The notes under the pieces are model-generated. The model was not told the DNA's origin and made no database searches. It saw only the letters and a list, made by a program, of their open reading frames with translations. Both the position numbers and the translations under genes were made by a program. From a virus, in IMG/VR virus record IMGVR_UViG_3300032223_001420, positions 22,491 through 86,490 of that record: a stretch of DNA of 64,000 bases. The stretch is one strand, 5' to 3'. Below are positions 28,664 to 43,749 of the stretch, piece by piece (within the stretch, counting starts at the first letter, position 1; each line of letters opens with the position of its first letter).

Positions 28664-28900
28664 ATGTTTGTTCAAATTAAAGATAAAGAGTATCTCATTC
28701 GTGACTTGAACAGTGGTGCGATATTAAATACTGATGAAGAAGAGTTGAAGGCATATTATGCACGTAGAGAACTTGCTCTAAAAGAGCATGAAGAAAAAGA
28801 AGTATTAACAAATAAAGTAAATAAACTAGAAGAGGATATCACGGACATCAAAGGGATGCTCCGTGAACTCGTACAGATGAGAATTCCAAATGGCAATTAA
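28664..28900 (+). CDS. Conserved small coiled-coil protein following the VrlC-like gene
   Basis: LIRDLNSGAILNTD motif plus C-terminal coiled coil; AGGA RBS. Confidence 0.65.
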   Translation: MFVQIKDKEYLIRDLNSGAILNTDEEELKAYYARRELALKEHEEKEVLTNKVNKLEEDITDIKGMLRELVQMRIPNGN

Positions 28901-29468
28901 TCAATTATCTACAGCAAACTCGTTTTCGGAATGGTTAACCACAACTGGTTATTTGGTTAATGCTACGAATGCACTTACCGATAACGTAGGCGGTTCTGGA
29001 TTTCTTGCCAATACGTCACTGTTTATTCAAGGTACCGATGCATCGTTGAATGTAAGAACTCTTGCAAACATCAATACATTACAAGCAAATACAGGTAATA
29101 TTGCTAATGTATTTTTTGCAGGCAGCAACATTTACGTTCCTAAAAATATAACTGTAAATGGAAACATCACAAGAGCCAACATTACAAGTAATTTGTCGGT
29201 TGGTGGTGATGCATTCATTTCTGGTAATCTTGTAGTTTCTGGTAATCTAACTTTAGATACTATTGGGTTTCAAGACTTACTTGTTTCCGGTTCTGCGAAT
29301 GTAGTTAATACGCTTTTTGTTTCAAGTAATTCAACATTTGTAAATGCGGTTTCCGCACAACATATATCACTAACAGGATCGTTTACTGGTCCACCAAATA
29401 CGGCTATTTACCAAGCGATTGCTACAGTAGATGCAGGCGCAATTGCATATGCTATTGCTTTAGGTTAA
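28890..29468 (+). CDS. Fibre-base/linker structural protein with hydrophobic C-terminus
   Basis: N-terminal NSFSEW...N motif, GNL beta repeats, ends AIAYAIALG. Confidence 0.55.
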   Translation: MAINQLSTANSFSEWLTTTGYLVNATNALTDNVGGSGFLANTSLFIQGTDASLNVRTLANINTLQANTGNIANVFFAGSNIYVPKNITVNGNITRANITSNLSVGGDAFISGNLVVSGNLTLDTIGFQDLLVSGSANVVNTLFVSSNSTFVNAVSAQHISLTGSFTGPPNTAIYQAIATVDAGAIAYAIALG

Positions 29469-29475
29469 ATAAATA
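29469..29475 (+). promoter_or_regulatory. Late promoter (ATAAATA)
   Basis: Upstream of the 29499 ORF, followed by a GAGG RBS. Confidence 0.6.
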
Positions 29476-29498
29476 CATCATAAAATTAGAGGATTTTA

Positions 29499-29825
29499 AT
29501 GGCTAACTCGTTTAAAAATAGTTTTGTAAATGCAGTGGGTGGAACAAAAACTGCTGTATATACTGCTGGCGCTGGCATACAAGCTACAGTTATCGGCATG
29601 AGTATATCAAATTTAATCAGCACTCCAATCTCAGTAAACGTTATTGTTACGTCTTCGGGAACAGATTATTACATGATTAAGAATGCTACGATATCTCCAG
29701 GTGGTGCATTAGTTCCAATTGGCGGTGACCAAAAATTAGTAATCAAAGCAACCGACTCAATTTCCGTAAATAGTTCAGTAGCATCTTCTGCTGACGTTAT
29801 TCTTTCAATTTTGGAGATTAGTTAA
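29499..29825 (+). CDS. Small beta-rich adaptor-like virion protein A1
   Basis: 108 aa, MANSFKN...VYT...ISN...KLVI...ends LSILEIS. Confidence 0.6.
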   Translation: MANSFKNSFVNAVGGTKTAVYTAGAGIQATVIGMSISNLISTPISVNVIVTSSGTDYYMIKNATISPGGALVPIGGDQKLVIKATDSISVNSSVASSADVILSILEIS

Positions 29826-30283
29826 TGGCTTATATTGGTAACGCACCAGAATTAACCACTTATGTAATTTCCACTGACAAGTTCAATGGAACAGGTGCTT
29901 GTACACAATTCACATTAGCAAGAAATATCAGTGACGCAAATGCTTTAAGTGTTATTGTTAATGGTATTCAACAAACACCAATTCAATCATATACAGTTAC
30001 TAATGGTGTGCTAACTTTTGACGAAGCACCTTCATCAGGTACGACAAATATCACAGTCAACTATCTTGCATCAAGTGTAATCACATATGCAAATCTTGGA
30101 CCAGGACAAATTTCTGCTGGTGCAGTAACATCAACATCATTAGCAACCAATTCAGTTACTACTGATAAAATTGTTGCTCTTGCGGTTACTGGAGATAAAC
30201 TTGCTAATAATTCGGTTTCTGGAAATAACATAGTATCACCAGCAGACATCTTTGATGATGCTTTCTTATTCGGCGGAATGTAA
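29825..30283 (+). CDS. Fibre linker protein L1
   Basis: MAYIGNAP, NGIQQ.P..Y......LTF.EAP domain, VTxxKL repeats, ends AFLFGGM. Confidence 0.6.
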   Translation: MAYIGNAPELTTYVISTDKFNGTGACTQFTLARNISDANALSVIVNGIQQTPIQSYTVTNGVLTFDEAPSSGTTNITVNYLASSVITYANLGPGQISAGAVTSTSLATNSVTTDKIVALAVTGDKLANNSVSGNNIVSPADIFDDAFLFGGM

Positions 30284-30299
30284 AAAGGAAAAATAACAA

Positions 30300-30638
30300 A
30301 TGGCAAGAGCATATAAAATACTTGGTCAGAAGAATCCATCAGCAAATGTCTTAACGACATTATATACTGTACCGTCAAGTAACTCTGCAATCATATCTTC
30401 ATTAGTAATTGCAAATCTAAACGAAACTGATGGTACAGGAAACGCATTCACTATAGCAGTAAATGTTGGTGGTGTTGCAATATCAAATACAAATTACTTA
30501 GCGTATAAAGTTAATTGCCCAACAAAAGATACAATTACTTTAACTTTAGGTATTACTTTAAATGCAGGTTCAATCGTTTCTGTTAATGCAAATGGTTCAC
30601 TTATAGCATTCTCCGCATTCGGCACTGAAATTTATTAA
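30300..30638 (+). CDS. Small adaptor-like virion protein A2
   Basis: 112 aa, MARAYKILGQ..P...TTLYTVP...LGITL...FSAFGTEIY. Confidence 0.6.
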   Translation: MARAYKILGQKNPSANVLTTLYTVPSSNSAIISSLVIANLNETDGTGNAFTIAVNVGGVAISNTNYLAYKVNCPTKDTITLTLGITLNAGSIVSVNANGSLIAFSAFGTEIY

Positions 30639-30648
30639 TGGAGTTTAA

Positions 30649-33243
30649 ATGAGTCTTCGTAGACTTGCTGTAAATCCTCTTTCGTCACAGAGACTTACTG
30701 CTGCTAGAATTATCAATAACCTTTTATCTTTACAAAGATTATCGGTACCGGTACCATCGAGCATTGGTAGCATTTTTCAAGTAATTCAAATTTTTAATGG
30801 GACATCTACATGGTCTGTTCCATCTGGAACAACTTTAGTTGACTATCTAATTGTTGCAGGTGGTGGTTCTGGTGGTTATCAAACTGGCGGTGGAGGTGGT
30901 GCTGGTGGATTATTAACCGGAACAAATTTATCTGTAACTCCTGGACAAACTTTTACACTTGCGGTAGGTGGCGGTGGTGCCGAAACAACATCACCTTTAA
31001 GTAGAGGATCAAACGGATCGAATTCTGGAATTTATAGTTCATCACCATCACCATTTCCTGCTTTATGGTCTATTGGTGGTGGCGGTGGTGGTTATATAGC
31101 TAATGCTTATGGTGGAGGTTCCGGTGGTGGCGGCGGTGGAGACGGTCCAGGACCAACAAATGCAGGAGCACCGGGTACACCGGGACAAGGTTTTGGTGGA
31201 GGTGCTGGAGCATTTTTATCAGCATCTCCAGGCATTCCAGGTAATCCAGGTTATCGTTTTGCTGGCGGTGGCGGTGGTGGCGCAGGTACTGCGGGTTTTG
31301 ATGGATCAGTACCTGCTCCAGCACCATTAGTAGTTACTGGGGGTAATGGTGGTATAGGAATTTTTTCAACCATCTCTGGTTCAAATACAGGTTATGCTGG
31401 TGGTGGCGGTGGAGCTGCTATGCTTACGTTACCGGGCAATCAACAAACAGCAGGATATGGAGCGATCACTACTGGTGGTGCTAACGGTTCCATTTATGGT
31501 GCAAATGCAAATGCAGGAATTTCTGGAACAGGTGGCGGTGGAGGTGGTGCCTCAAATCCTGGTGCTGGCCCAGGATATGTTGGAGGTGGTAATAGCGGTG
31601 GATCGGGTGTCATCATTCTTCGTTATAGTGCATATCAAGCTGGCGCTTATATATTTTCGAATACGGGACAGCTTGTAATTCCTCAAGGTGTAACAGCAAT
31701 CGATTATCTTGTTGTTGCTGGCGGTGGCGGTGGTGCATCTTCTGGAATTGGCGCTGGTGGAGGTGCTGGTGGATTATTAACTGGTTCTGGTTATCCAGTA
31801 ATACCAGGACAACTTTATACAATTCAAGTTGGTTCTGGAGGAAATGCTGGATATCCAATAGGTAGCCAAGGATCAAATTCTGGCATATGGAATACATCAT
31901 CGGGAACCAATATATGGACTAATGGTGGTGGTTATGGTGCAGCGGCAAATCCAAGTCCAGGAACTGGAAATGGTGGGGGATCAGGTGGTTCTGGTGGTGG
32001 TGCCGCTGGTGGTGCTGTACCTGTTGCTATTTATCCGGGCGGCGCAGGTACTCCGGGTCAGGGAAATAATGGTGGTAACGCAGGATTTCTTGCTGCTGGG
32101 GGCGGCGGCGGAGCAGGCAGTGTTGGTGTTGTTGGTTCTTCTGGCACAACTGGCAATGGAGGTCTTGGTATTTTCTCCAGTATAAGTGGAGCCAATACAG
32201 CATACGCTGGCGGTGGTGGCTCAATAGGCGGTCCAGGTCCATCTATCAGTTATGGTGGAGGAGGCAACTCTAGAGGACCTGGTTATTATGGTTCAACAAG
32301 TTCTTTAATAGCACCTTATGGTGCATTTATAGGTACGCCTTTTGGTGCGGGTAGTGGCAACACTGGTGAAAGTGGAGTTTCAGGAACGGGCAGTGGTGGT
32401 GGAGGTGCAACTCCTCTGGCTGGTTCAGGTGGTTCGGGTATAGTAATCATTAAACCTTCTTCAATTCAAACTGGATATGCGACATGGACTTCTTCGAGCA
32501 TATGGACACCACCTGCCGGTGTTAGTTTGATTTCATATCTAATTGTTGCAGGTGGAGGTGGTGGGGGTCTAGCATCACCAAATGCTGGCGCTGGCGGCGG
32601 AGGTGGTGCTGGTGGCCTCAGAGCCGGATCAGGATTCCCTGTAACACCTACAGTGCCAATCACCGTAACAGTTGGTGCTGGCGGTGCTAGTCAAACAAAC
32701 GGTTCAAATTCTGGAATTTATGGAACATCTCCATTTCCTGCTATTTGGTCTACTGGTGGTGGACGAGGTGGCAACGATGATGGTGCCACATTTGCTGGTG
32801 GTCCAGGTGGTTCTGGTGGTGGAGCAGCATGTTCTGGGTTTGGCACTCCAACAAGTAGAATTGGTGGGCAAGGTAATTTAGGAGCATATACTCCAGCCGA
32901 AGGAACAGGTGGTGGTTCTGGAACAAGTAATCCAGGTGCTGCTGGTGGTGGTGGAGGTGCTTCTGCGAACGGTATAAGTGGAACACCTTCTGCTGGCGGT
33001 AATGGGGGAGTTGGAATTTTCTCAACCATATCTGGCTCAAATACTGGATATTCTGGTGGAGGTGGTGGTGGTACAAATGCACCAATAACTATAGGCTATG
33101 GTGCATTTACAAGTGGCGGTGCGAATGGAGTAACTTCGGGTACTGGTTCAAGTGCAGTATCTTATCAAGGCGGTGGTGGCGGTGGAGGTGCTACTGGTGG
33201 TGGTTCTGGTGGTTCCGGAGTTGTTGTTTTGAGATGGGTATAA
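30649..33243 (+). CDS. Glycine-rich putative adhesin/receptor-binding protein 1 (three tandem Gly-rich domains)
   Basis: Three repeats of (I/V)(D/S)YL(I/V)VAGGG ... GGSG(V/I)(V/I)(I/V). Confidence 0.7.
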   Translation: MSLRRLAVNPLSSQRLTAARIINNLLSLQRLSVPVPSSIGSIFQVIQIFNGTSTWSVPSGTTLVDYLIVAGGGSGGYQTGGGGGAGGLLTGTNLSVTPGQTFTLAVGGGGAETTSPLSRGSNGSNSGIYSSSPSPFPALWSIGGGGGGYIANAYGGGSGGGGGGDGPGPTNAGAPGTPGQGFGGGAGAFLSASPGIPGNPGYRFAGGGGGGAGTAGFDGSVPAPAPLVVTGGNGGIGIFSTISGSNTGYAGGGGGAAMLTLPGNQQTAGYGAITTGGANGSIYGANANAGISGTGGGGGGASNPGAGPGYVGGGNSGGSGVIILRYSAYQAGAYIFSNTGQLVIPQGVTAIDYLVVAGGGGGASSGIGAGGGAGGLLTGSGYPVIPGQLYTIQVGSGGNAGYPIGSQGSNSGIWNTSSGTNIWTNGGGYGAAANPSPGTGNGGGSGGSGGGAAGGAVPVAIYPGGAGTPGQGNNGGNAGFLAAGGGGGAGSVGVVGSSGTTGNGGLGIFSSISGANTAYAGGGGSIGGPGPSISYGGGGNSRGPGYYGSTSSLIAPYGAFIGTPFGAGSGNTGESGVSGTGSGGGGATPLAGSGGSGIVIIKPSSIQTGYATWTSSSIWTPPAGVSLISYLIVAGGGGGGLASPNAGAGGGGGAGGLRAGSGFPVTPTVPITVTVGAGGASQTNGSNSGIYGTSPFPAIWSTGGGRGGNDDGATFAGGPGGSGGGAACSGFGTPTSRIGGQGNLGAYTPAEGTGGGSGTSNPGAAGGGGGASANGISGTPSAGGNGGVGIFSTISGSNTGYSGGGGGGTNAPITIGYGAFTSGGANGVTSGTGSSAVSYQGGGGGGGATGGGSGGSGVVVLRWV

Positions 33244-33246
33244 ATA
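33239..33246 (+). promoter_or_regulatory. T4 late promoter TATAAATA
   Basis: Exact T4 late consensus upstream of the 33281 ORF. Confidence 0.7.
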
Positions 33247-33280
33247 ATGATTAGCAATTTTACTTTATAGGAGTGATTGA

Positions 33281-33694
33281 ATGAATAACAAAGAAATTGA
33301 ATATGCACATTACTTAATTGGTAACGATAATAAATTAGTTTGTGGTATCGACACAGCAATTAAAGCACTACGCCCAACCGCACGTTATGATATGGCAGCA
33401 TCAGGTGGGCATTTTACTTTTACTCGTTGGGAAGATGAAGCTGATACAAAAGCACCAACTAAAGCGGAGATTATGGCAGAGTTGGAATATCAGAATAAGT
33501 TTATTGAACACAATCAGTATTTTTTAGATCGTGCTGCAAACTATCCCGATATTACTGTTCTAGTAAATTTACTTTGGGAAGCAATGGATAATAGTGAGAT
33601 ACCAGGCAAAGGAACAAAGTTTTATAATGCAATCAAAGAAGTGAATGAGAAGTTTCCTAAACCAGAAGGTGATGCTCCAGTAAGACCAACATAA
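33281..33694 (+). CDS. XkdW-like / tail fibre assembly protein
   Basis: AIKALRPTA...W...PTKAEI...Y..DR...YP.I..L..LW pattern; follows an adhesin gene. Confidence 0.5.
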   Translation: MNNKEIEYAHYLIGNDNKLVCGIDTAIKALRPTARYDMAASGGHFTFTRWEDEADTKAPTKAEIMAELEYQNKFIEHNQYFLDRAANYPDITVLVNLLWEAMDNSEIPGKGTKFYNAIKEVNEKFPKPEGDAPVRPT

Positions 33695-33706
33695 CGAAAG
33701 AGTTAA

Positions 33707-34099
33707 ATGAGTTACATAGGAAACCAAGTCAAGTCAGTACCATACATCACTGATGTTTTTAGTGGAGCAGGTGGCACATCGTTTGGACCACTTACGATTG
33801 TACCAGCCAGCCCCGCTTCAGTTATGATATTTGTTGGTGGTGTATATCAACGACCAACATTAGATTATACACTGAGTGTTGACTATGTAAACTTTGTATC
33901 CGCACCAACATCAGGAACAAACAATATTGTCATTCATCATATTGGATATGGTTACATGTCAACCCAAGTTCCTGCTGATGGAACAGTAACCGCACCAAAA
34001 TTAGGTGTACAGTCGATCTATTCAAACAATTTTTCAACACAAGCAAATTCAACAATCACAGGAAAATCAGTAGCGATGGCTATTGTATTCGGAGGATAA
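33707..34099 (+). CDS. Fibre linker protein L2 (paralogue of L1)
   Basis: MSYIGNQ, GGVYQRP..DY, F.SAP.SGT.NI, ends AMAIVFGG. Confidence 0.6.
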   Translation: MSYIGNQVKSVPYITDVFSGAGGTSFGPLTIVPASPASVMIFVGGVYQRPTLDYTLSVDYVNFVSAPTSGTNNIVIHHIGYGYMSTQVPADGTVTAPKLGVQSIYSNNFSTQANSTITGKSVAMAIVFGG

Positions 34100-34104
34100 A
34101 ATAA

Positions 34105-34500
34105 ATGGCAGCACCAAATATCGTCGCAGTTTCAACCATTAATGGTAAATCAAATGTTGCCAACGTAACCACAGTTACTTCGAACGTTGTTGTGAATGCA
34201 ATAGGATCAGGTAAAGTATTTAAGATTAATACGATCTATATTTCTAATGTTGATGGTACAAATTCTGGTAATATTACTGTTGGTCTTTATAAAGCAGGTA
34301 ACACTGGTTCACAAAGGTCTGCTGACGGCACACTTTCAAATACAGTATTTTCACTTGCTAACGTAGTTACTGTTCCTGCTAAATCAACACTTGATCTTCT
34401 AAGTAAAACTCTTTATTTGGAAGAAGGAGATGTAATTACTGTCAAAGGCGATTCAAATAATCGTATGCATATGATTACATCATTCGAGGAACTAAGCTAA
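34105..34500 (+). CDS. Small adaptor-like virion protein A3
   Basis: 131 aa, MAAPNIV...KINTIYISNVDG...TVPAKSTL...YLEEGD...SFEELS. Confidence 0.6.
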   Translation: MAAPNIVAVSTINGKSNVANVTTVTSNVVVNAIGSGKVFKINTIYISNVDGTNSGNITVGLYKAGNTGSQRSADGTLSNTVFSLANVVTVPAKSTLDLLSKTLYLEEGDVITVKGDSNNRMHMITSFEELS

Positions 34501-34501
34501 G

Positions 34502-37018
34502 ATGCCACTTGGTTTAAATGGTGGTATAATTGGTGTATTAAATTCATCCACAAAAGCTGGCGGGGCATCTGGTCTTTGGTCGCACAGTGAAGTTGGTATC
34601 AATAGATTACAAGGATTGTGGCCAGACCCAACCAGTGTAGTTCGCACATTTACATCATCGACTACGTGGACCGCTCCAGGTGCAGTAACGATTGATTATT
34701 TCGTTGTTGCTGGTGGTGGCGGTGGAGCATCTGGCGCAGCAGGACCAGGTAATGCTGGCGGTGGTGGAGGTGGCGGTGCTGGTGGTTATCTCTCGGGCAC
34801 TGGGTTACCAATATCATCCGGACAAACATATACGATTGCAGTTGGTTCGGGTGGTGCAGGAGGAACAGCACCACCCGCCAATTTTAGTAACTATGGAAGT
34901 AACGGAACAAACTCTGGTATATTTGTTACATCATCTGGTGCAAATTTAATTCCTTCTTGGGCATATGGTGGTGGCGGTGGTGCTGGTGGAGATGCAACAC
35001 CCACAAGCATTGGTTATTCTGGTGGTTCAGGTGGTGGTGGAAATTCTAACGGTCCAGCCGCAGGTAAAGGAATTTATCCTGGCTCGGCTTTCATAGATGC
35101 TCCTAGACAAGGTTATGATGGAGGTACTGGTAGTACCGCAGGAGGCGCAGGTGGTGGTGCGGGTGCAGCCGCACTTTCTCCAGGTGGCGGAAATTTTACA
35201 ACTATTCCTGGTGGTTTGGGAGTATATAACTCACTCGTTGGTTCAAACACGTATTATGCTGTTGGTGGTGACGGTGGTCGAAATGATTTCCCTTCACCCA
35301 CTTTAACAGGTGCGACCGCTGCCAGTTCGACTGGTTCTGGTGGAGGTGGAGGAGGACAAGGAGGTGGCGGTGCATATTTAGGTGGTGCTGGTGGTTCGGG
35401 TATTATCGTACTCAAATATTCTTTGAACCCCACACTAAATTCCACTCCAATGGTTTTTTCAAATACAAGTCAACTTGTTATTCCAGATGGCGTAACATCT
35501 ATAGATTATTTAATTGTTGCTGGTGGTGGAGGCGCTGATTCTGGTGGCGGTGGTGGCGGTGGTTTAATAACAGGAACAGGTTTTCCTGTAACCCCAAATC
35601 AATCATATACTGTCGTTGTAGGTGCCGGAGGAGCAGGCGGTCGTAATGGTGGTGGATCAGGACCTTTATCCACTGCTGGTGGTAATTCAAGTTTTTCATC
35701 ACTGTGGACACATGGTGGAGGTAGAGGAGGTTCTAGTAATTCACCAAACTATCTAGGCGGTGTTGGTGGTTCTGGTGGTGGTTCGGGTCAAGCACTTTCT
35801 CCACCATCTGGTGGTGGAACATTTAATGGTGGAGCAGCGAATTCTGTAGTAGTCCAAGGCTATGCTGGTGGTCAAGGTGGAACTGATAACGGTTCATATC
35901 GTTATTCTGGTGGAGGTGGCGGGGCGGGTGCTGTTGGTGGCAATGGCACATCAACTGGTGGTGGAGTTGGTGGAAATGGTGGAGCAGGATTATTATCATC
36001 TTTATCTGGTACACCAACGTATTATGCTGGCGGAGGTGGTGGAAAAGGTGATTCTCCAACTGGTCAATCAACAGGCGGCACAGGTGGCGGTGGTGCTGGT
36101 GCATTAGGACCTACTGGAAATGGAAGTAGTGGTACTGCTTCAACCGGTGGCGGTGCGGGCGGTCAAAATTCAGGCAGTGCATATGGTGGTAATGGTGGTT
36201 CTGGTGTTGTTGTTATTAGATTTTCTGGCACGAAGCCTAATGTTTTTTCTGTATTTACTAGCACATCTTCGTGGACTGTACCAACAGGAATTACAGGAAT
36301 AAGTTATATGATTGTTGGTGGTGGCGGTGGTGGAGGTGCAGGATTTTCTGGAGGTGGTGGCGGTGGCGGTGGATTCCGTACAGGAACATTTTTAGTAACT
36401 CCAGGTTCAACATATACAGTTACAGTTGGCGCTGGTGGTGCAATTAATTCAGGTAATGGTTCCAATTCAGGAATCAGTGGTACTACAGGGTCCGTTTGGG
36501 CTGCTGGTGGGGGCGGTGGAGGTGGAACCGGTTCTGGTGCTCCTTCATTAGGATATGGTCAATCTGGTGGCTCTGGTGGCGGTAACGGAAGTAAAAATCC
36601 AGATGGTACTACAGTCGGGCAAGGAAACTCACCATATACAACACCGGTACAAGGATACAATGGTAACACAGGTGGAACTCCAGGTGGTGTTGATTGGGGT
36701 GGTGGCGGTGGTGGTGCAGGTGGAGCCGGTGGCGGTGGCGGATACAACGGTGTCGGTCAAGGCGGTTTAAGTGTATTTTCTTCATTCTCTGGATCAAATA
36801 CTTCATACGGTGGCGGTGGTGGTGCAGGAACAGCAAACGTTCCAGGTGGTTATGGAAATGGTGGCGGTGGTTCACAAGCTGCACCAATAGGAGATTTATC
36901 TGGTGGTAGTACAGGTTCTCCAGGAATAACAAATTCTGGTGGTGGCGGTGGCGGGCAACCTCAAGCACCCAATATTGGTGCTGGTGGTTCTGGAATCGTT
37001 ATCATCAAAGGATTATAA
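34502..37018 (+). CDS. Glycine-rich putative adhesin 2 (three Gly-rich domains)
   Basis: NGGIIG...GLWS...WP N-terminus; three IDY/ISY..V.GGG ... GGSG(I/V)(I/V) units. Confidence 0.7.
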   Translation: MPLGLNGGIIGVLNSSTKAGGASGLWSHSEVGINRLQGLWPDPTSVVRTFTSSTTWTAPGAVTIDYFVVAGGGGGASGAAGPGNAGGGGGGGAGGYLSGTGLPISSGQTYTIAVGSGGAGGTAPPANFSNYGSNGTNSGIFVTSSGANLIPSWAYGGGGGAGGDATPTSIGYSGGSGGGGNSNGPAAGKGIYPGSAFIDAPRQGYDGGTGSTAGGAGGGAGAAALSPGGGNFTTIPGGLGVYNSLVGSNTYYAVGGDGGRNDFPSPTLTGATAASSTGSGGGGGGQGGGGAYLGGAGGSGIIVLKYSLNPTLNSTPMVFSNTSQLVIPDGVTSIDYLIVAGGGGADSGGGGGGGLITGTGFPVTPNQSYTVVVGAGGAGGRNGGGSGPLSTAGGNSSFSSLWTHGGGRGGSSNSPNYLGGVGGSGGGSGQALSPPSGGGTFNGGAANSVVVQGYAGGQGGTDNGSYRYSGGGGGAGAVGGNGTSTGGGVGGNGGAGLLSSLSGTPTYYAGGGGGKGDSPTGQSTGGTGGGGAGALGPTGNGSSGTASTGGGAGGQNSGSAYGGNGGSGVVVIRFSGTKPNVFSVFTSTSSWTVPTGITGISYMIVGGGGGGGAGFSGGGGGGGGFRTGTFLVTPGSTYTVTVGAGGAINSGNGSNSGISGTTGSVWAAGGGGGGGTGSGAPSLGYGQSGGSGGGNGSKNPDGTTVGQGNSPYTTPVQGYNGNTGGTPGGVDWGGGGGGAGGAGGGGGYNGVGQGGLSVFSSFSGSNTSYGGGGGAGTANVPGGYGNGGGGSQAAPIGDLSGGSTGSPGITNSGGGGGGQPQAPNIGAGGSGIVIIKGL

Positions 37019-39454
37019 ATGGCTAAAAGATTCAATGGTGGTTTAATTGGCACACCAAACTTAACAACAATCACTAGAGCTACTGGTATTTGGTCACTTG
37101 GTGATGTACGAAATAGTATTTTAACGAATTCATGGCCACAAGCAACTCCAGTCGTATATACATTTTTATCATCAACTACATTTCAGATACCTGCGGATGT
37201 AGGTGCTATAGACTATTTTATAGTTGCAGGTGGTGGTGCGGGTGGTGGGCAAGGTAATGGTATTGGTGGTGGCGGTGGTGGAGGTGGAGGTTATCTAACA
37301 GGTTTAGCTGTACCAGTTATTTCTGGTGCAACATATACTATCGCTGTCGGTTCTGGTGGTACAGGAACAAGCGCCCAAACACAAGGTGCCAATGGAGGTA
37401 ACTCTGGCATATTTAATACAAGTTCTGGTACAACAGTAACACCGTGGGCAATTGGCGGTGGTGGAGGCGGTGGTGGTAATGGTGCCGCATCAAGTAATGG
37501 TTATGCTGGTGGTTCTGGTGGTGCTGCAAGTAATGGTAATGCTGGCGCAGGAACACCAGGTCAAGGTAATAACGGAGGTTCAGGAAATAATAGTGGAGCA
37601 CCAAACTATCGACTATCTGGTGGTGGCGGTGCAGGAGCTATTGGGCAAGATGGTAATTTTGGTGGTGCTGGCGGCGCAGGAATTTATTCATCGTTCTCTG
37701 GTGCTAACGTAGCATACGCTGGAGGTGGTGGCGGTGGAGGTAATGGGGGTTCTGCTGCTGCTATCGCAATTGGTGGCGGTGGTATAGGTGGCGGTGGAAG
37801 TGCAAATACAAACACCGGTGGTGGTGGCGGTGGCGCACAAAATGGCGGTACCAGTGGCAATGGTGGTTCGGGTATCGTTATGATTAGATGCTATCAATAT
37901 ACCACTGATGCTCTTATATTTAATAACACAACTCAATTTACAATACCTTCTGGCATAACAGCAATCGATTATCTTGTTGTTGCTGGCGGTGGCGGTGGTG
38001 GTGCACAATATGGAGGCGGTGGTGGCGGTGGAGGTGGTTATGTAGTTGGAAGCGCATTTCCGGTTTCTGGTACATTAAACATTGTTGTTGGTGCTGGCGG
38101 CACTGGAGGTGGAGCTGAACCAAATAGCGCACAAGGAACAAGAGGAGGTAACTCTTCAATAGCTGCAATTTCTTCGAATACCGCAATACTTGCTGTTGGT
38201 GGTGGATATGGGGGTCAAGGTGGCGCATATATTGCAGCCGGTGGCTCAGGTGGTTCTGGTGGAGGTGGAGGTGGTTTTGCTGGTGGTACAACAGCGATAG
38301 GTGGTATTGGATTTTTAGGTCAAGGAAATAATGGTGGTAGTGGTTATGGAACTGCAAATTATGGCTCCGGTGGAGGTGGGGGTGCCGGTCAAGTAGGAAC
38401 ATCTGCAGTAACAAATGCCCCAACATATAGTTCAGGAAAAGGTGGCGATGGACTATCATCATCATTATCTGGAACACCCACATATTATTCTGGAGGTGGT
38501 GGCGGTGGAGGTAATGGTGGTTCGGCAGCAGGTGGCTTAGGTGGTGGTGGAACTGGAGGTTCTTCTAGTAATCCCACAACACCCGCTCCTGGTTATTTTG
38601 GAACAACTGGTACACCAAATACTGGTGGCGGTGCTGGTGGTTCTGGAGGCAATTTGGGTGGTGTGAATGGTGGTTCGGGAATCGTAATCATTCGACCTTC
38701 ATATTATCAGTCACAATATAAAACTGCTGTATTTACTACAACCACATCATGGGTTGCAACAACTTCATTAGTTGATTATCTTGTCGTTGCAGGCGGTGGT
38801 GGTGGCAATGAAGGCGGCGGCGGTGCAGGAGGTTTCTTAACTGGCACTGGAATGTCATTAACGCCAGGTCAATCGTACTCAGTTATAGTTGGTGCTGGTG
38901 GTAGTGGTGGATCAGGAAGTTCGGTACTAGCAACAAACGGAGCAAACTCTTCATTTAATGGTATCAATTCTATTGGTGGTGGTTATGGTGGCGGTGGTAC
39001 CAATGGTGGAGCTAATAATGGTGGTTCAGGTGGCGGTGCATCAGCATCAACACAAGGTGGTCCATATGCTGGAGGAATTGGAATACTAGGTCAAGGTCTT
39101 GGTGGTGGCGGTGGTATAAGTGTTTCTGGTGTAGGTAACTTTACTGGTGGTGGAGGTGGTGCTGGTGCTAACGGAGAACCAGGTATTGGTAGCACTAGAT
39201 CAGGTAATGGTGGTATAGGTTTATCATCTTCTATATCTGGTATGCCAACTTATTACGCCGGCGGTGGTGGTGCTTGGGGTTCTCCTGGTACATTAACAAC
39301 ATCAGGAGGTATAGGTGGTGGCGGCAGCGGCACTACCGTAAGAGGAGATTATACTAACGCAGGAACGCCAGGAACTGGTAGTGGTGGTGGCGGTAATCCA
39401 AATCCTGTTGGCGGCAATGGTGGTTCGGGTATAGTAATTCTCAGATGGACATAA
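37019..39454 (+). CDS. Glycine-rich putative adhesin 3 (three Gly-rich domains)
   Basis: NGGLIG...GIWS...WP N-terminus; three DY(F/L)(I/V)VAGGG ... GGSGIV units. Confidence 0.7.
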   Translation: MAKRFNGGLIGTPNLTTITRATGIWSLGDVRNSILTNSWPQATPVVYTFLSSTTFQIPADVGAIDYFIVAGGGAGGGQGNGIGGGGGGGGGYLTGLAVPVISGATYTIAVGSGGTGTSAQTQGANGGNSGIFNTSSGTTVTPWAIGGGGGGGGNGAASSNGYAGGSGGAASNGNAGAGTPGQGNNGGSGNNSGAPNYRLSGGGGAGAIGQDGNFGGAGGAGIYSSFSGANVAYAGGGGGGGNGGSAAAIAIGGGGIGGGGSANTNTGGGGGGAQNGGTSGNGGSGIVMIRCYQYTTDALIFNNTTQFTIPSGITAIDYLVVAGGGGGGAQYGGGGGGGGGYVVGSAFPVSGTLNIVVGAGGTGGGAEPNSAQGTRGGNSSIAAISSNTAILAVGGGYGGQGGAYIAAGGSGGSGGGGGGFAGGTTAIGGIGFLGQGNNGGSGYGTANYGSGGGGGAGQVGTSAVTNAPTYSSGKGGDGLSSSLSGTPTYYSGGGGGGGNGGSAAGGLGGGGTGGSSSNPTTPAPGYFGTTGTPNTGGGAGGSGGNLGGVNGGSGIVIIRPSYYQSQYKTAVFTTTTSWVATTSLVDYLVVAGGGGGNEGGGGAGGFLTGTGMSLTPGQSYSVIVGAGGSGGSGSSVLATNGANSSFNGINSIGGGYGGGGTNGGANNGGSGGGASASTQGGPYAGGIGILGQGLGGGGGISVSGVGNFTGGGGGAGANGEPGIGSTRSGNGGIGLSSSISGMPTYYAGGGGAWGSPGTLTTSGGIGGGGSGTTVRGDYTNAGTPGTGSGGGGNPNPVGGNGGSGIVILRWT

Positions 39455-39457
39455 ATA
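39451..39457 (+). promoter_or_regulatory. Late promoter (ATAAATA)
   Basis: At the stop of adhesin 3, upstream of the 39505 ORF. Confidence 0.5.
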
Positions 39458-39504
39458 AATAACTAAATAGATTGAAATAGTTTTTAACAAAGGGAGTTTT
39501 TTAG

Positions 39505-39888
39505 ATGGCACATTTTGCACAACTTGATGATAATAATATTGTTACTCAGGTCATTGTTGTAGGTAACAATGAATTACTTGACGCCAATGGTCAAGAACGT
39601 GAAGAGCTTGGAGTGGCTTTTTGTCAACGACTATTTGGTGGTAATTGGAAACAAACATCATACAATCATAATTTGCGTTTTAGATATGCTGGTATTGGCT
39701 ATCATTACAACGCTGATCTTGATGCGTTTGTTCCACCAAAACCATTCCCATCATGGGTACTCGATAATACGACAGCGAATTGGAAAGCGCCAGTAGACTT
39801 GCCTTCTGATGCTGGTACAGGTGAACCACCTAAAACTTATCATTGGGATGAAGCAACAACTTCATGGGTTGCAGATACAACAACATAA
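39505..39888 (+). CDS. Adhesin-associated small protein (possible chaperone or tip cap)
   Basis: MAHFAQLD.NNIVTQVIVV...WKQTSYN...YAGIGY.Y....DAF..PKPFPSW...W.AP...Y.WDE..W, a motif that typically follows Gly-rich fibre genes in aquatic phages. Confidence 0.6.
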   Translation: MAHFAQLDDNNIVTQVIVVGNNELLDANGQEREELGVAFCQRLFGGNWKQTSYNHNLRFRYAGIGYHYNADLDAFVPPKPFPSWVLDNTTANWKAPVDLPSDAGTGEPPKTYHWDEATTSWVADTTT

Positions 39889-40548: not shown

Positions 40549-43500
40549 ATGTCTAATACAGCTATTCAAATAAAACGCTCGACGGTTACCAGTGCGCCAA
40601 CTAAGCTGAATATTGGTGAGCTTGGCTATTCTTATACGAGTAATACTCTTTTTATTGGTAGTCGAGATGGTCAAGGATCATTAGCCGTTGGTGGTAATGC
40701 ATTTATTGGCATGTATCAAACGATGTATGATCGTTCGAACACTGCTTACACCACAGCGATTCAAGCATCAATTGATGTTGGCGCAGGATTTAGTCAAGCG
40801 AATGGTGCTTACAATCAAGCCAATGCTGCTTATATTTCACAAAACACTACTGGTGTTGTTGCGAACTCTGCTGGCATTTATGCCAATGGTGCATTTGGAG
40901 CAGCCAATGCTGCTGGTTCTTATGCCAATGGTGCATTTATTAAAGCCAATTCTGCTTATCTGTCACAGAATGTAACTGGCTCATATGCAAACTCTGCTTA
41001 TGCGAATGCTAATGCGGCATTCTCTCAAGCTAACTCAGCGTTTGCAAATGCGAATGCTTCTTTTGCACAAGCGAATGCTTCGTTCATTCAAGCTAACGGT
41101 GCATTCATACAAGCGAACGCTGCTTATATTTCACAAAATACAACCGGCGCTGTTGCAAATTCTGCTGCAATATATGCTAATGGCGCATTCGTTACCGCTA
41201 ATGCTGCTGGCGTTTATGCCAATGGCGCATTTGCTGCCGCTAACGTAGCTGGTACATATGCTAACGGTGCTTATGGTTTTGCGAATTCAGCTTCGTCGTA
41301 TGCCAATGGTGCTTTTATTACAGCTAATGCAGCATCTTATTACGCAAACATCCCATCGTATGGTGCGAACTCAGCTTCGGCATATGCTAATGGTGCATTT
41401 GCAGCCGCTAACGTATCGGGCATTTATGCGAATGGTGCTTATGGATTTGCAAACTCTGCTTCAGCATACGCCAATGGTGCTTTCGCTGCTGCAAACGTTG
41501 CTGGCATATACGCTAATGGTGCATATGGATTTGCCAACTCTGCTTCAGCGTATGCTAACGGAGCATTTGCTGCTGCAAACTCCTCACTAGGGACTAACCT
41601 AGTTCAGAATACAAACATCACATCGGCTGCATCTTATGCCAATGGTGCGTTTATACAAGCTAATGCAGCCTATATCAGTCAAAATACAACTGGTATAATT
41701 GCCAATGGTGCATTCACACGTGCTAACAATTCACTGGATGCAAACAATGGTGGCATCGTAACTGGTAATGTGACGTTTACGAAAAACGTAGTTATCGGTG
41801 GAGATACTACTGTTTCTGGTAATCTATATGTTATGGGTAATACATTCAGCGTTAATGCTGGTGCTATTATCGCAAATGATTCTTTAATCATTCTTGGTTT
41901 AGGTAACTATACATCTGACGTAGTAGATATTGGATTTGCAGGTCACTATAATGCTGGCGTAAATGCACATTCAGGTTTGTTCCGTGATGCTACTCTCAAA
42001 GAATGGTATCTGTTTAAAGGTTATACACCAGATGTAAATGCAGTAAACAATATTGATACTACTGATCCATCATTTAAAGTTGATACATTAAATGCAAATC
42101 TGAAGTCTACTTTTGTTCAAGTTAAAAATATTGATTTGTTACCATATATTAATGCTGCGTTTGATTCTGCTAACGTCAGCACCGGTGTAGATTTAACACA
42201 AAATAATAGTATCACTGCTGTATTCACTTTAGCTAATGGTACAGCGATTGCTGCAAACACACCAAGTTACACTGCAAACTCTGCTGCAATCTATGCGAAT
42301 GGTGCATTTAACGCAGCAAATGTTTCTGGTATATACGCCAACGGTGCGTTTGGTACTGCAAATGCTGCGGGTTCTTATGCCAATGGTGCATTCATCACCG
42401 CTAATGCTGCATCATATTATGCAAACATACCGTCATACGGAGCAAACTCTGCTTCATCGTATGCTAACGGTGCTTTCATCAAAGCTAATGCAGCATACAT
42501 CAGTCAAAACACTACAGGTATCGTTGCTAACAATGCTCTTGATCGTTCTATCTCTGGAGCATCATATGCCAATGGCGCATTCGTTCAAGCTAATGCAGCA
42601 TATCAATCACAAAACGTAACTGGTTCATACGCAAATACAGCATATGCTCAAGCTAATGCTGCATACATCAGCCAGAACACTACAGGTATTATAGCGAATG
42701 GTGCATACAATCAAGCCAACGCTGCATACATCAGTCAAAATACAACTGGTATAATTGCTAATGGTGCTTACAATCAAGCCAATGCTGCTTATCTGTCGCA
42801 AAACGTTAGTGGTGCTTATGCAAACTCTGCTTATGCAAATGCCAATGCTGCGTTTGCCCAAGCTAATGCTGCGTTCATTCGTGCGAATAATTCATTAGAC
42901 GCAAACAATGGTGGTGTAGTTACGGGTAACGTAACATTTACACAAAACGTAGTTGTTGGTGGTGATGCAACTGTCACAGGTAACCTATCAGTTCTTGGTG
43001 CTTTAACTTATGTAAACACAACACAACTGTTAGTTAAAGACAATGTTATCACGTTGAATGCTGCGATCAATCAAACATCAGCTCCAATCTTCAATGCTGG
43101 TTTTGAAATTGCACGTGGTTCTTCTGCTAATGTTTATTTGATTTGGAATGAAACAACTCAGAACTGGACACTTACAAGAAACGGTACAGCATATTATAAC
43201 ATAGCATCCGATGCTGCGGAGTCATATGCTAACGCTGCATTTGCTCAAGCCAATGGTGCTTTTAATCAAGCGAATGCTGCTTATCTGTCACAGAACGTAA
43301 GCGGTTCTTATGCTAATAGTGCATACGCAAATGCTAATGCTGCTTTTGCACAAGCCAATGCTGCTTATGCTTATGCTAATGCATCGATTGCGACAATCGC
43401 TTCCGTTGGTTGGGACTTGGATGATGTATCTAGATTAACTGATGGATTCTTAACTGTATTCCCATTACAATATAGTTTGCAAAATGTTTCGGTATCTGGA

Positions 43501-43749
43501 CCAAATAGTCTTTGGGTTTCGGTTAGTGGAAATACTCAAAGATCGTTTGCAAATACATATGACACAACATTTATGAGTCATTTATTATCAGCAAATAAAG
43601 GATACAAATTAACATCCGATGGTCGCATTCAATTCGTAATACCACCAAGAAATGCTTCGGATGTTCTGATTAGGGTAGTCACAGGTTCGGCAAATACAAC
43701 TGCTAGAGTATACCCATTCAAACCCACTGATATTCTCATGGGTTACTAA
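40549..43749 (+). CDS. Long coiled-coil fibre with Ala-Asn heptad repeats
   Basis: Mtd-N-like IQIKRS...L.IGELGY...LFIG N-terminus; dozens of A(F/Y)xxAN(G/S/A) heptads; two GNVTF..GNL beta domains; ends ILMGY. Confidence 0.7.
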   Translation: MSNTAIQIKRSTVTSAPTKLNIGELGYSYTSNTLFIGSRDGQGSLAVGGNAFIGMYQTMYDRSNTAYTTAIQASIDVGAGFSQANGAYNQANAAYISQNTTGVVANSAGIYANGAFGAANAAGSYANGAFIKANSAYLSQNVTGSYANSAYANANAAFSQANSAFANANASFAQANASFIQANGAFIQANAAYISQNTTGAVANSAAIYANGAFVTANAAGVYANGAFAAANVAGTYANGAYGFANSASSYANGAFITANAASYYANIPSYGANSASAYANGAFAAANVSGIYANGAYGFANSASAYANGAFAAANVAGIYANGAYGFANSASAYANGAFAAANSSLGTNLVQNTNITSAASYANGAFIQANAAYISQNTTGIIANGAFTRANNSLDANNGGIVTGNVTFTKNVVIGGDTTVSGNLYVMGNTFSVNAGAIIANDSLIILGLGNYTSDVVDIGFAGHYNAGVNAHSGLFRDATLKEWYLFKGYTPDVNAVNNIDTTDPSFKVDTLNANLKSTFVQVKNIDLLPYINAAFDSANVSTGVDLTQNNSITAVFTLANGTAIAANTPSYTANSAAIYANGAFNAANVSGIYANGAFGTANAAGSYANGAFITANAASYYANIPSYGANSASSYANGAFIKANAAYISQNTTGIVANNALDRSISGASYANGAFVQANAAYQSQNVTGSYANTAYAQANAAYISQNTTGIIANGAYNQANAAYISQNTTGIIANGAYNQANAAYLSQNVSGAYANSAYANANAAFAQANAAFIRANNSLDANNGGVVTGNVTFTQNVVVGGDATVTGNLSVLGALTYVNTTQLLVKDNVITLNAAINQTSAPIFNAGFEIARGSSANVYLIWNETTQNWTLTRNGTAYYNIASDAAESYANAAFAQANGAFNQANAAYLSQNVSGSYANSAYANANAAFAQANAAYAYANASIATIASVGWDLDDVSRLTDGFLTVFPLQYSLQNVSVSGPNSLWVSVSGNTQRSFANTYDTTFMSHLLSANKGYKLTSDGRIQFVIPPRNASDVLIRVVTGSANTTARVYPFKPTDILMGY

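Follow-up and report, generated by a model that had tools for sequence, protein, structure and literature searches.

We examined a block of putative fiber genes in a 64-kb window (the whole stretch of DNA analyzed), which is part of the 86.5-kb IMG/VR virus record IMGVR_UViG_3300032223_001420, a record with a completeness rating of 48%. Matches to PHROG families mark the virus as a T4-like myovirus, with a tail tube cap, a hub/lysozyme, wedge subunits resembling gp6, gp7, and gp8, and neck proteins further on. The block lies between a 2,088-amino acid (aa) DUF4815 protein and the neck genes; T4 encodes its baseplate-attached fibers at the same relative place. Its genes run in the order B, adaptor 1 (Ad1), D, adaptor 2 (Ad2), F, G, H, adaptor 3 (Ad3), J, K, and L with short gaps, and the stop codon of Ad1 overlaps the start of D (Table 1). 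Searched as a whole against phage records by megablast, the block gave no match.

Table 1. Genes of the fiber block, with positions in the 64-kb window.
Feature	Position	Strand	Length (aa)	Sequence features	Family match
Base fiber segment B	28890..29468	+	192	Tail AIAYAIALG (29439-29465), IALG class	
Ad1	29499..29825	+	108	Ends LEIS	phrog_26609, E 0.0011
Linker D	29825..30283	+	152	MAYIGN start; Ig-like shaft domain; tail AFLFGGM (30260-30280)	phrog_18673 (tail fiber), E 2e-8
Ad2	30300..30638	+	112	Ends TEIY	N-terminal part of phrog_1276, E 1.6e-6
Head 1, F	30649..33243	+	864	MSLRR start; three Gly_rich_2 domains	PF21722, E 2.5e-44, 152.4 bits
Small protein G	33281..33694	+	137	Closes head block 1	phrog_9114, phrog_1787, phrog_20715
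Linker H	33707..34099	+	130	MSYIGN start; Ig-like domain of D; tail AMAIVFGG (34073-34096)	
Ad3	34105..34500	+	131	Ends EELS	phrog_1276, E 0.002
Head 2, J	34502..37018	+	838	NGGIIG (34517-34534), then GLWS...WP; three Gly_rich_2 domains	PF21722, E 4.7e-53, 180.9 bits
Head 3, K	37019..39454	+	811	NGGLIG (37034-37051), then GIWS...WP; three Gly_rich_2 domains	PF21722, E 2.9e-60, 204.5 bits
Small protein L	39505..39888	+	127	Closes head block 2	phrog_7759, E 1.3e-45

The original prediction, made from the DNA itself, described a repeated order in this block, in which a segment with a short hydrophobic C-terminal tail is followed at once by a small adaptor, and the adaptor by segments with characteristic N-terminal motifs. 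It proposed that the tails dock into the adaptors and that these capture the matching N-terminus of the next tier, giving a branched fiber. As an observation, the repeated tail-adaptor order is confirmed, with every open reading frame (ORF), tail, and terminal motif exactly as described when compared with the ORF list. The three Gly_rich_2 (PF21722) stretches in each of F, J, and K bring all three proteins above the Pfam gathering cut-off of 24.3 bits. Over 30-40 kb the G+C content rises to 0.43-0.49, compared with ~0.36 in the flanks, with a GC skew of 0.17-0.31 (G over C); both are accounted for by the glycine codons of F, J, and K rather than by foreign DNA. The Ig-like shaft domain of linkers D and H matched residues 588-692 of the cyanophage P-SCSP1u fiber gp28 (8i4m_e) in a profile search (E 1e-7), and also a K1 capsule depolymerase. 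A T7 gp17-type N-terminal tail-attachment domain, considered for D and H, had no Pfam match, and the PDB profile search found the internal shaft domain instead.

We then asked whether the adaptors are related, as the original prediction supposed. Pairwise BLAST among the three was not significant (E 0.92, 15, and 0.92), and it was profile comparison that joined them into one family. Relatives were gathered from viral contigs, with 46 of 83 candidate stretches confirmed for Ad1, 9 of 33 for Ad2, and 541 of 599 for Ad3, where 80 loci were kept. Aligned with hhalign, the family profiles of Ad1 and Ad2 matched at a probability of 96.8% (E 2.9e-10), and those of Ad1 and Ad3 at 98.6%, or 96.9% (E 1.8e-10) once three intermediate sequences were removed. 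The direct link between Ad2 and Ad3 was weak without these intermediates (23.5%, E 8.7e-4), and their homology is drawn from Ad1 as a bridge and from the match of both to phrog_1276. In a 65-sequence adaptor alignment, A3, one asparagine and a C-terminal glutamate were at least 90% conserved. At E ≤ 0.001, 44 of the 65 members matched phrog_1276 and 19 matched phrog_26609, both PHROGs without known function, and no Pfam family matched either the window's adaptors or the A3 members.

The record of this virus holds just three adaptor copies. Across 1.84 billion representative sequences, a HMMER scan returned 8,501 clusters (50% identity) at E ≤ 0.001, 2,435 of them at E ≤ 1e-10, and the proteins were mostly 100-130 aa long among the best 150 matches listed. 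Judged by these matches, the adaptor family is large, unnamed, and recurrent across thousands of phages. A solved relative was not found: the best hit of an hmmsearch against PDB sequences was a designed propeller (E 0.1), and the ESM Atlas contained no model and returned only unnamed viral clusters. Literature searches, with supplements and several subscription papers outside their reach, found no paper on the family or its motifs. Six proteins of 216-237 aa (P0039, P0053, P0077, P0109, P0113, and P0154) have two stretches each that match the adaptor profile and are apparently tandem doubles.

The tails were examined by taking as upstream gene the nearest plus-strand ORF ending no more than 60 nucleotides (nt) before the adaptor; taking the longest ORF within 250 nt passed over short tail-bearing genes. 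In a first sample of 116 unique adaptor homologues from other contigs, with the window's own adaptors left out, 96 had the cognate tail class directly upstream and one had a non-cognate class. Upstream of Ad1 homologues (n = 37) there were 32 IALG tails, one IVFG, one generic hydrophobic tail, two others, and in one case none. Ad3 homologues (n = 68) followed 57 IVFG tails, four ...FIYGV variants, and seven others, and Ad2 homologues (n = 11) followed seven tails of the form (F/L)L(F/M)GG(M), one ...LMLMGG variant, and two others, with one at a locus edge. Among 1,092 other plus-strand ORFs in these loci (minimum length 60 aa), 2 had such a tail, so that the pattern exceeds chance. A second sample, scored by the same regular expressions, added 61 further unique proteins, taken from loci that a fused form of the adaptor had retrieved. 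Here, 52 of 60 Ad3-type adaptors followed an IVFG tail and none an IALG tail, the remaining eight being six plain variants and two without a tail; the single Ad1-type protein was preceded by an IALG tail. The upstream proteins span 42 to 1,310 aa. Consensus tails for the Ad1, Ad3, and Ad2 families were A-(I/L)-A-(L/F)-A-I-A-L-G, T-G-K-A-I-A-M-A-I-V-F-G, and D-I-F-D-D-x-F-L-F-G, respectively, and the first two alternate alanine with large hydrophobic residues. Both background tails (L014:1533-2042 and L088:912-1406) lie in loci without a tail gene adjoining the adaptor; other ORFs, spanning ~2 kb and ~0.7 kb, stand between tail gene and adaptor, perhaps as a result of gene insertion.

On the downstream side, the next protein began with M-x-(Y/F)-(I/L/V)-G (xYIGN) after 25 of 35 Ad1 homologues and with NGGIIG after none of the 35. 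After Ad2, an MSLRR-type start, M(S/T/A)(L/Q/I)(R/N)(R/L), was found in 8 of 11 cases. After Ad3 (n = 64), 45 genes had NGGIIG and/or GxWSL..WP, nine had xYIGN, and 11 had neither, one gene with both motifs being counted twice. The Ad3 figures use an expression for the N-terminus that was widened post hoc, since its first version missed GxWSL..WP starts (43 "other" of 60 standalone adaptors in the second sample); with the widened expression, 37 of 56 second-sample Ad3 adaptors were followed by NGGIIG and/or GxWSL..WP. The N-terminal motif tracks the adaptor family, but more loosely than the proposed capture code would have it, as the xYIGN and motif-less starts after Ad3 indicate. In 72 of 114 cases the adaptor stop overlaps the next start. 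The downstream proteins have only a short N-terminal peptide in common, and their bodies are unrelated, comprising Ig-like shafts, Ala-rich repeats, glycine-rich and LamG-like heads, and propeller-like repeats.

Such adjacency could in principle be nothing more than synteny handed down from a single ancestral operon, in which tail, small protein, and N-terminus have no functional bearing on one another. The sampled sequences do fall into few clusters, and the closest relatives are syntenic T4-like contigs. In those contigs, adaptors are 57-80% identical over their full length, apart from a single partial Ad2; G and L reach 70-92%, and B homologues of 164-672 aa are 49-57% identical and keep the tail; heads are 36-47% identical with partial cover and differing lengths, the exception being a 72% high-scoring segment pair over 24% of J (L069). 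What argues against simple inheritance is that tails persist next to adaptors whose flanking bodies have nothing in common. In 3,559 locus pairs the Ad3-type adaptors share 60% identity or more; upstream bodies had no BLAST similarity in 3,001, and 2,056 of those 3,001 were still at least 70% identical in their 10-residue tails. Downstream proteins had no BLAST hit in 2,840 of 3,220 pairs, a figure that composition correction on glycine-rich proteins may inflate. In addition, the three tail classes stay with their own adaptor family within single genomes, and the triplet of tail, adaptor, and next N-terminus recurs in unrelated backbones, among them Kyanoviridae, Kleczkowskaviridae, the HMO-2011 type, an actinobacterial phage with a tape-measure gene, and Llyrvirus. 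We consider inherited synteny very improbable as the whole explanation, and it is disfavored.

Recurrence of the arrangement, as the original prediction anticipated, extends to cultured phages. In all ten examined, the small gene comes right after a fiber, baseplate, or short tail-bearing gene (Table 2). Isolates of abundant ocean phage types carry the family: HMO-2011, pelagiphages, cyanophages, and roseophages. Two heads with a common N-terminal motif after a single adaptor, as in J and K, are found again in HTVC033P, S-SKS1, and YerA41, and in RHph_Y65 a second protein with an xYLGN start lies further downstream, after a DUF4376 gene.

Table 2. Upstream tail, adaptor, and next gene in ten cultured phages.
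Phage	Upstream tail	Adaptor (aa)	Next gene
CRP-9	...ALAIALG	110	MPYIGN
HTVC033P	...AIAMAIVFG	120	Two glycine-rich heads with NGGIIG
vB_OspM_OC	...ALSIALG	112	MAYLGN tail fiber
RHph_Y65	...AMAIALG (76-aa protein)	110	MSYIGA tail fiber
DSL-LC04	...AMAMIFGF	125	Glycine-rich head
phiPsal1	...LMLMGG (86-aa protein)	111	No motif; next annotated gene 199 nt on
YerA41	...SMAIALG	104	MSYLGR and MGGYLGQ
S-SKS1	...MMGMIF	120	Two heads with NGG(T/R)IG
P-SSM2	...EFFVGQI (doubtful variant)	106	MGRFVG (91 aa)
HMO-2011	...AMAIAL	108	MPYIGQ

The predicted branch at Ad1, from which both D and H would depart, gained support from one related locus, L194. This locus begins with a DUF4815-like C-terminus, followed by a B homologue (287 aa, MAINQ start, ...AFAIALG), Ad1, a 131-aa MSYLGN linker ending ...AIAMAIVFGKK, and Ad3; it continues with a glycine-rich head that has NGGIIG, then another linker (MSYIGN start, ...AMSIVFGG tail), another Ad3-type adaptor, and a further head. 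An H-type linker stands directly after Ad1 here, and there are again two xYIGN linkers to one Ad1.

A different view of the small protein would make it a distal tip, a minimal cap or adhesin like gp38 on gp37 in T2 and S16, with the downstream genes being independent fibers that share the operon. In those phages, gp38 is an adhesin on the gp37 tip that holds its attachment and glycine-rich parts in one polypeptide. The likeness is that a protein encoded after the fiber gene, at the fiber C-terminal end, presents a glycine-rich module (F, J, and K are glycine-rich), with attachment here being proposed; the differences are that the attachment and glycine-rich parts are usually separate genes here, fused in some relatives, and that no sequence similarity was found. 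Adaptors that contain an insertion or are extended at the C-terminus do resemble tip adhesins with an attachment domain, and two GenBank records label homologues as "putative lectin" and "c1q globular head like" (the latter in phage OC, p357), as deposited. Against a tip stand the association of adaptor family with the next gene's N-terminal motif, the stop-start overlap with that gene, and chains like that of L194, in which the linker between two adaptors combines an xYLGN start with an IVFG tail. We regard a distal tip as quite unlikely, and return to adaptors as connectors between segments.

Natural fusions bear on the same point. A search for longer forms of the adaptor gave 30 proteins, which we sorted with the family profile. 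In 13 of them, ~250 aa are inserted in a mid-adaptor loop, and one such connector, in L227 (3001-4155), is still preceded by an ...AIAMAIVFGG tail. In another 13 the adaptor is N-terminal: six are clean fusions to head-like bodies, which carry Peptidase_S74 and Laminin_G_3 domains on P0003 and P0030, five retain the head start motif, and two are chimeric, the partner being an integrase or a transporter. The five (P0005, P0025-P0027, and P0029) have adaptor and glycine-rich head in one frame with the head's M-x-NGGIIG start retained inside, where HTVC033P has at the equivalent place a stop and a 30-nt gap; they could reflect read-through, stop loss, or a different code in those contigs. The adaptor is C-terminal in the remaining four, of which P0002 joins a fiber to the adaptor with the tail missing, P0001 looks like a read-through, and P0009 and P0024 have other N-terminal extensions. 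Fusion of adaptor to head, and of fiber to adaptor with loss of the tail, suggests at the sequence level that the parts bind each other. The insertion subfamily (P0006-P0008, P0010, P0012, P0013, P0015-P0020, and P0023, and the L227 protein) has a length of ~380-386 aa and an insert with repeated DGTK(L/V)Y-like motifs, and in P0014 a repeat domain of the DGTK(L/V)Y type is C-terminal to the connector.

We propose that these genes encode a modular baseplate fiber, probably a branched one, of a T4-like marine myovirus, with segments joined by a family of connectors of ~110-130 aa. Each connector would take up the C-terminal 8-12 residues of the segment before it and would then hold the N-terminal peptide of the next. 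The tails alternate with a period of two: ahead of the terminal glycine, positions -1, -3, -5, and -7 are large hydrophobic residues and positions -2, -4, -6, and -8 are alanine, so that the tail may enter as an added strand of the connector beta sheet. The block would have three joints that do not cross-react: B-Ad1-(D and H), D-Ad2-F, and H-Ad3-(J and K). The connector would amount to a detachable attachment domain of the next tier, fused to the head in some phages and kept as its own gene in most, and two heads on one connector could be held at once or in alternation. Physical binding, strand insertion, retention in the virion, and stoichiometry are what we infer from these patterns; we judge it marginally probable that the connectors belong to the virion, accept a C-terminal tail resembling a beta strand, and hold the segment that follows, so that the fiber branches. 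The docking interpretation of the original prediction is partly supported, with adaptor homology, recurrence, and the Ad1 branch in its favor, and with a looser N-terminal code and a chaperone assigned by position to its debit.

Several observations weigh against this proposal. Ad3 follows a tail-less protein in four close relatives (L060, L064, L068, and L069), as does Ad2 in two (L056 and L064). In L054/L055 and L064 a G-like gene comes directly after Ad2 and the head is missing, as if it had been lost. The N-terminal code is not exclusive to one adaptor family. Single linkage lumps the 177 unique adaptors into 12 clusters at 50% identity and 7 at 40%, which is a poor measure of lineages, and the tail-adaptor counts are therefore not independent events; a cognate tail is the majority in only 6 of the 12 clusters, the other 6 being small divergent groups. 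Finally, the YerA41 late gene g041 is listed as "Virion structural protein" without an asterisk and is not among the 63 particle proteins found by liquid chromatography-tandem mass spectrometry in Table 3 of PMC7354516, where the four neighboring genes g042-g045 are flagged as particle proteins. By gene order, g041 is probably the connector homologue of that table. Some homologues are also labeled "Virion structural protein" in GenBank, as deposited.

If that correspondence of g041 holds, its lack of a particle mark favors another role, in which the small proteins would be non-structural assembly chaperones for the upstream fiber that bind its tail, aid trimerization, and leave, with the downstream genes attaching elsewhere. 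Tail fiber assembly chaperones such as Tfa of Mu and lambda, T4 gp38 and gp57A, and Pam3 gp25 are encoded by a small gene after the fiber gene and are specific for the fiber C-terminus; the connector gene shares both this classical place and the specificity for the upstream C-terminus. Unlike these chaperones, the connector domain is fused before head-like domains in 6 of the 30 long forms, and 13 of the 30 have a large inserted domain. Many upstream partners, at 42-90 aa, are too short for fibers that need a chaperone, and translational coupling is to the downstream gene. The YerA41 locus has a conventional tail-fiber assembly gene under its own annotation, RHph_Y65 has a DUF4376 gene, and no chaperone family (Tfa/Caudo_TAP, T4 gp38, gp57A, or DUF4376) was among the Pfam matches at E ≤ 1 or the PHROG matches at E ≤ 0.001 of the 65 A3 members and the window proteins. 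We rate an assembly chaperone as unlikely, though less so than the other alternatives, and continue with connectors that would stay in the fiber.

Comparison with known systems places the proposed connectors among several partial parallels. In the T4 long tail fiber, the joints gp34-gp35-gp36-gp37 are encoded by genes in structural order, and gp35 is a small hinge protein. The block resembles this fiber in its serial segments from consecutive genes, in a small protein between proximal and distal parts, and in its T4-like baseplate-fiber context. It differs in that the adaptors have no PHROG or Pfam match to the gp35 or gp36 families, and in that the joint is marked by short terminal peptides, has three tail-specific paralogues in one genome, and appears to branch. 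Branched systems with several receptor-binding proteins include the SP6/K1-5 gp37 adaptor, the CBA120 tailspikes, and G7C gp63.1/gp66, which rely on folded N-terminal docking domains on the receptor-binding proteins. Here, too, the genes point to several receptor-binding proteins on one attachment point through N-terminal elements, but the conserved parts are a free-standing connector of ~110 aa and very short terminal motifs. Donor-strand complementation, known from chaperone-usher pili, is a parallel in mechanism and no more: it suggests how a tail peptide with alternating large hydrophobic residues could fill a beta-sandwich groove. This likeness is drawn from the periodicity alone, and the proteins are unrelated.

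Multi-part fibers and adaptors are known from few model phages, and to our knowledge no general rule, readable from sequence, is in use for which fiber part docks on which. If the tail-connector pairs bind as proposed, genome sequences would reveal how a fiber is built and where it branches, receptor-binding genes in metagenomes could be assigned to shafts, and mosaic host-range modules would be explained by exchange at the joints as natural breakpoints. More broadly, and only tentatively, since we hold it somewhat improbable, there may be a portable code in many lineages that consists of a few orthogonal peptide-in-socket joints, each with an 8-12-residue strand tail, a connector of ~110 aa, and an N-terminal peptide. 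Under such a code, any shaft could couple to any head with several heads per base, which would explain both mosaic host-range evolution in abundant marine phages and branched multi-adhesin fibers.

The small proteins that close the head blocks, G and L, were putative chaperones in the original prediction, and this assignment fared less well than the order itself. The two do recur after glycine-rich heads: unique homologues stand directly after a glycine-rich protein in 28 of 35 cases for L and in 8 of 15 for G, and an L homologue follows the first glycine-rich head of HTVC033P. Their family matches are all to PHROGs of unknown function, and position is the sole basis for the label; G is possibly an assembly factor.

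Upstream of the block, positions 28664-28900 of the window encode a 78-aa coiled-coil-like protein that matches phrog_473 ("virion structural protein," E 1.3e-18) and whose end overlaps the start of B. Downstream, a 111-aa protein at 39980-40315 matches phrog_3304 ("L-shaped tail fiber protein assembly," E 1.1e-23) and weakly resembles an LtfC-like beta-sandwich. It is followed by a 73-aa ORF and then by a 1,066-aa fiber (40549-43749) of Ala/Asn-rich SYANGAF-type repeats.

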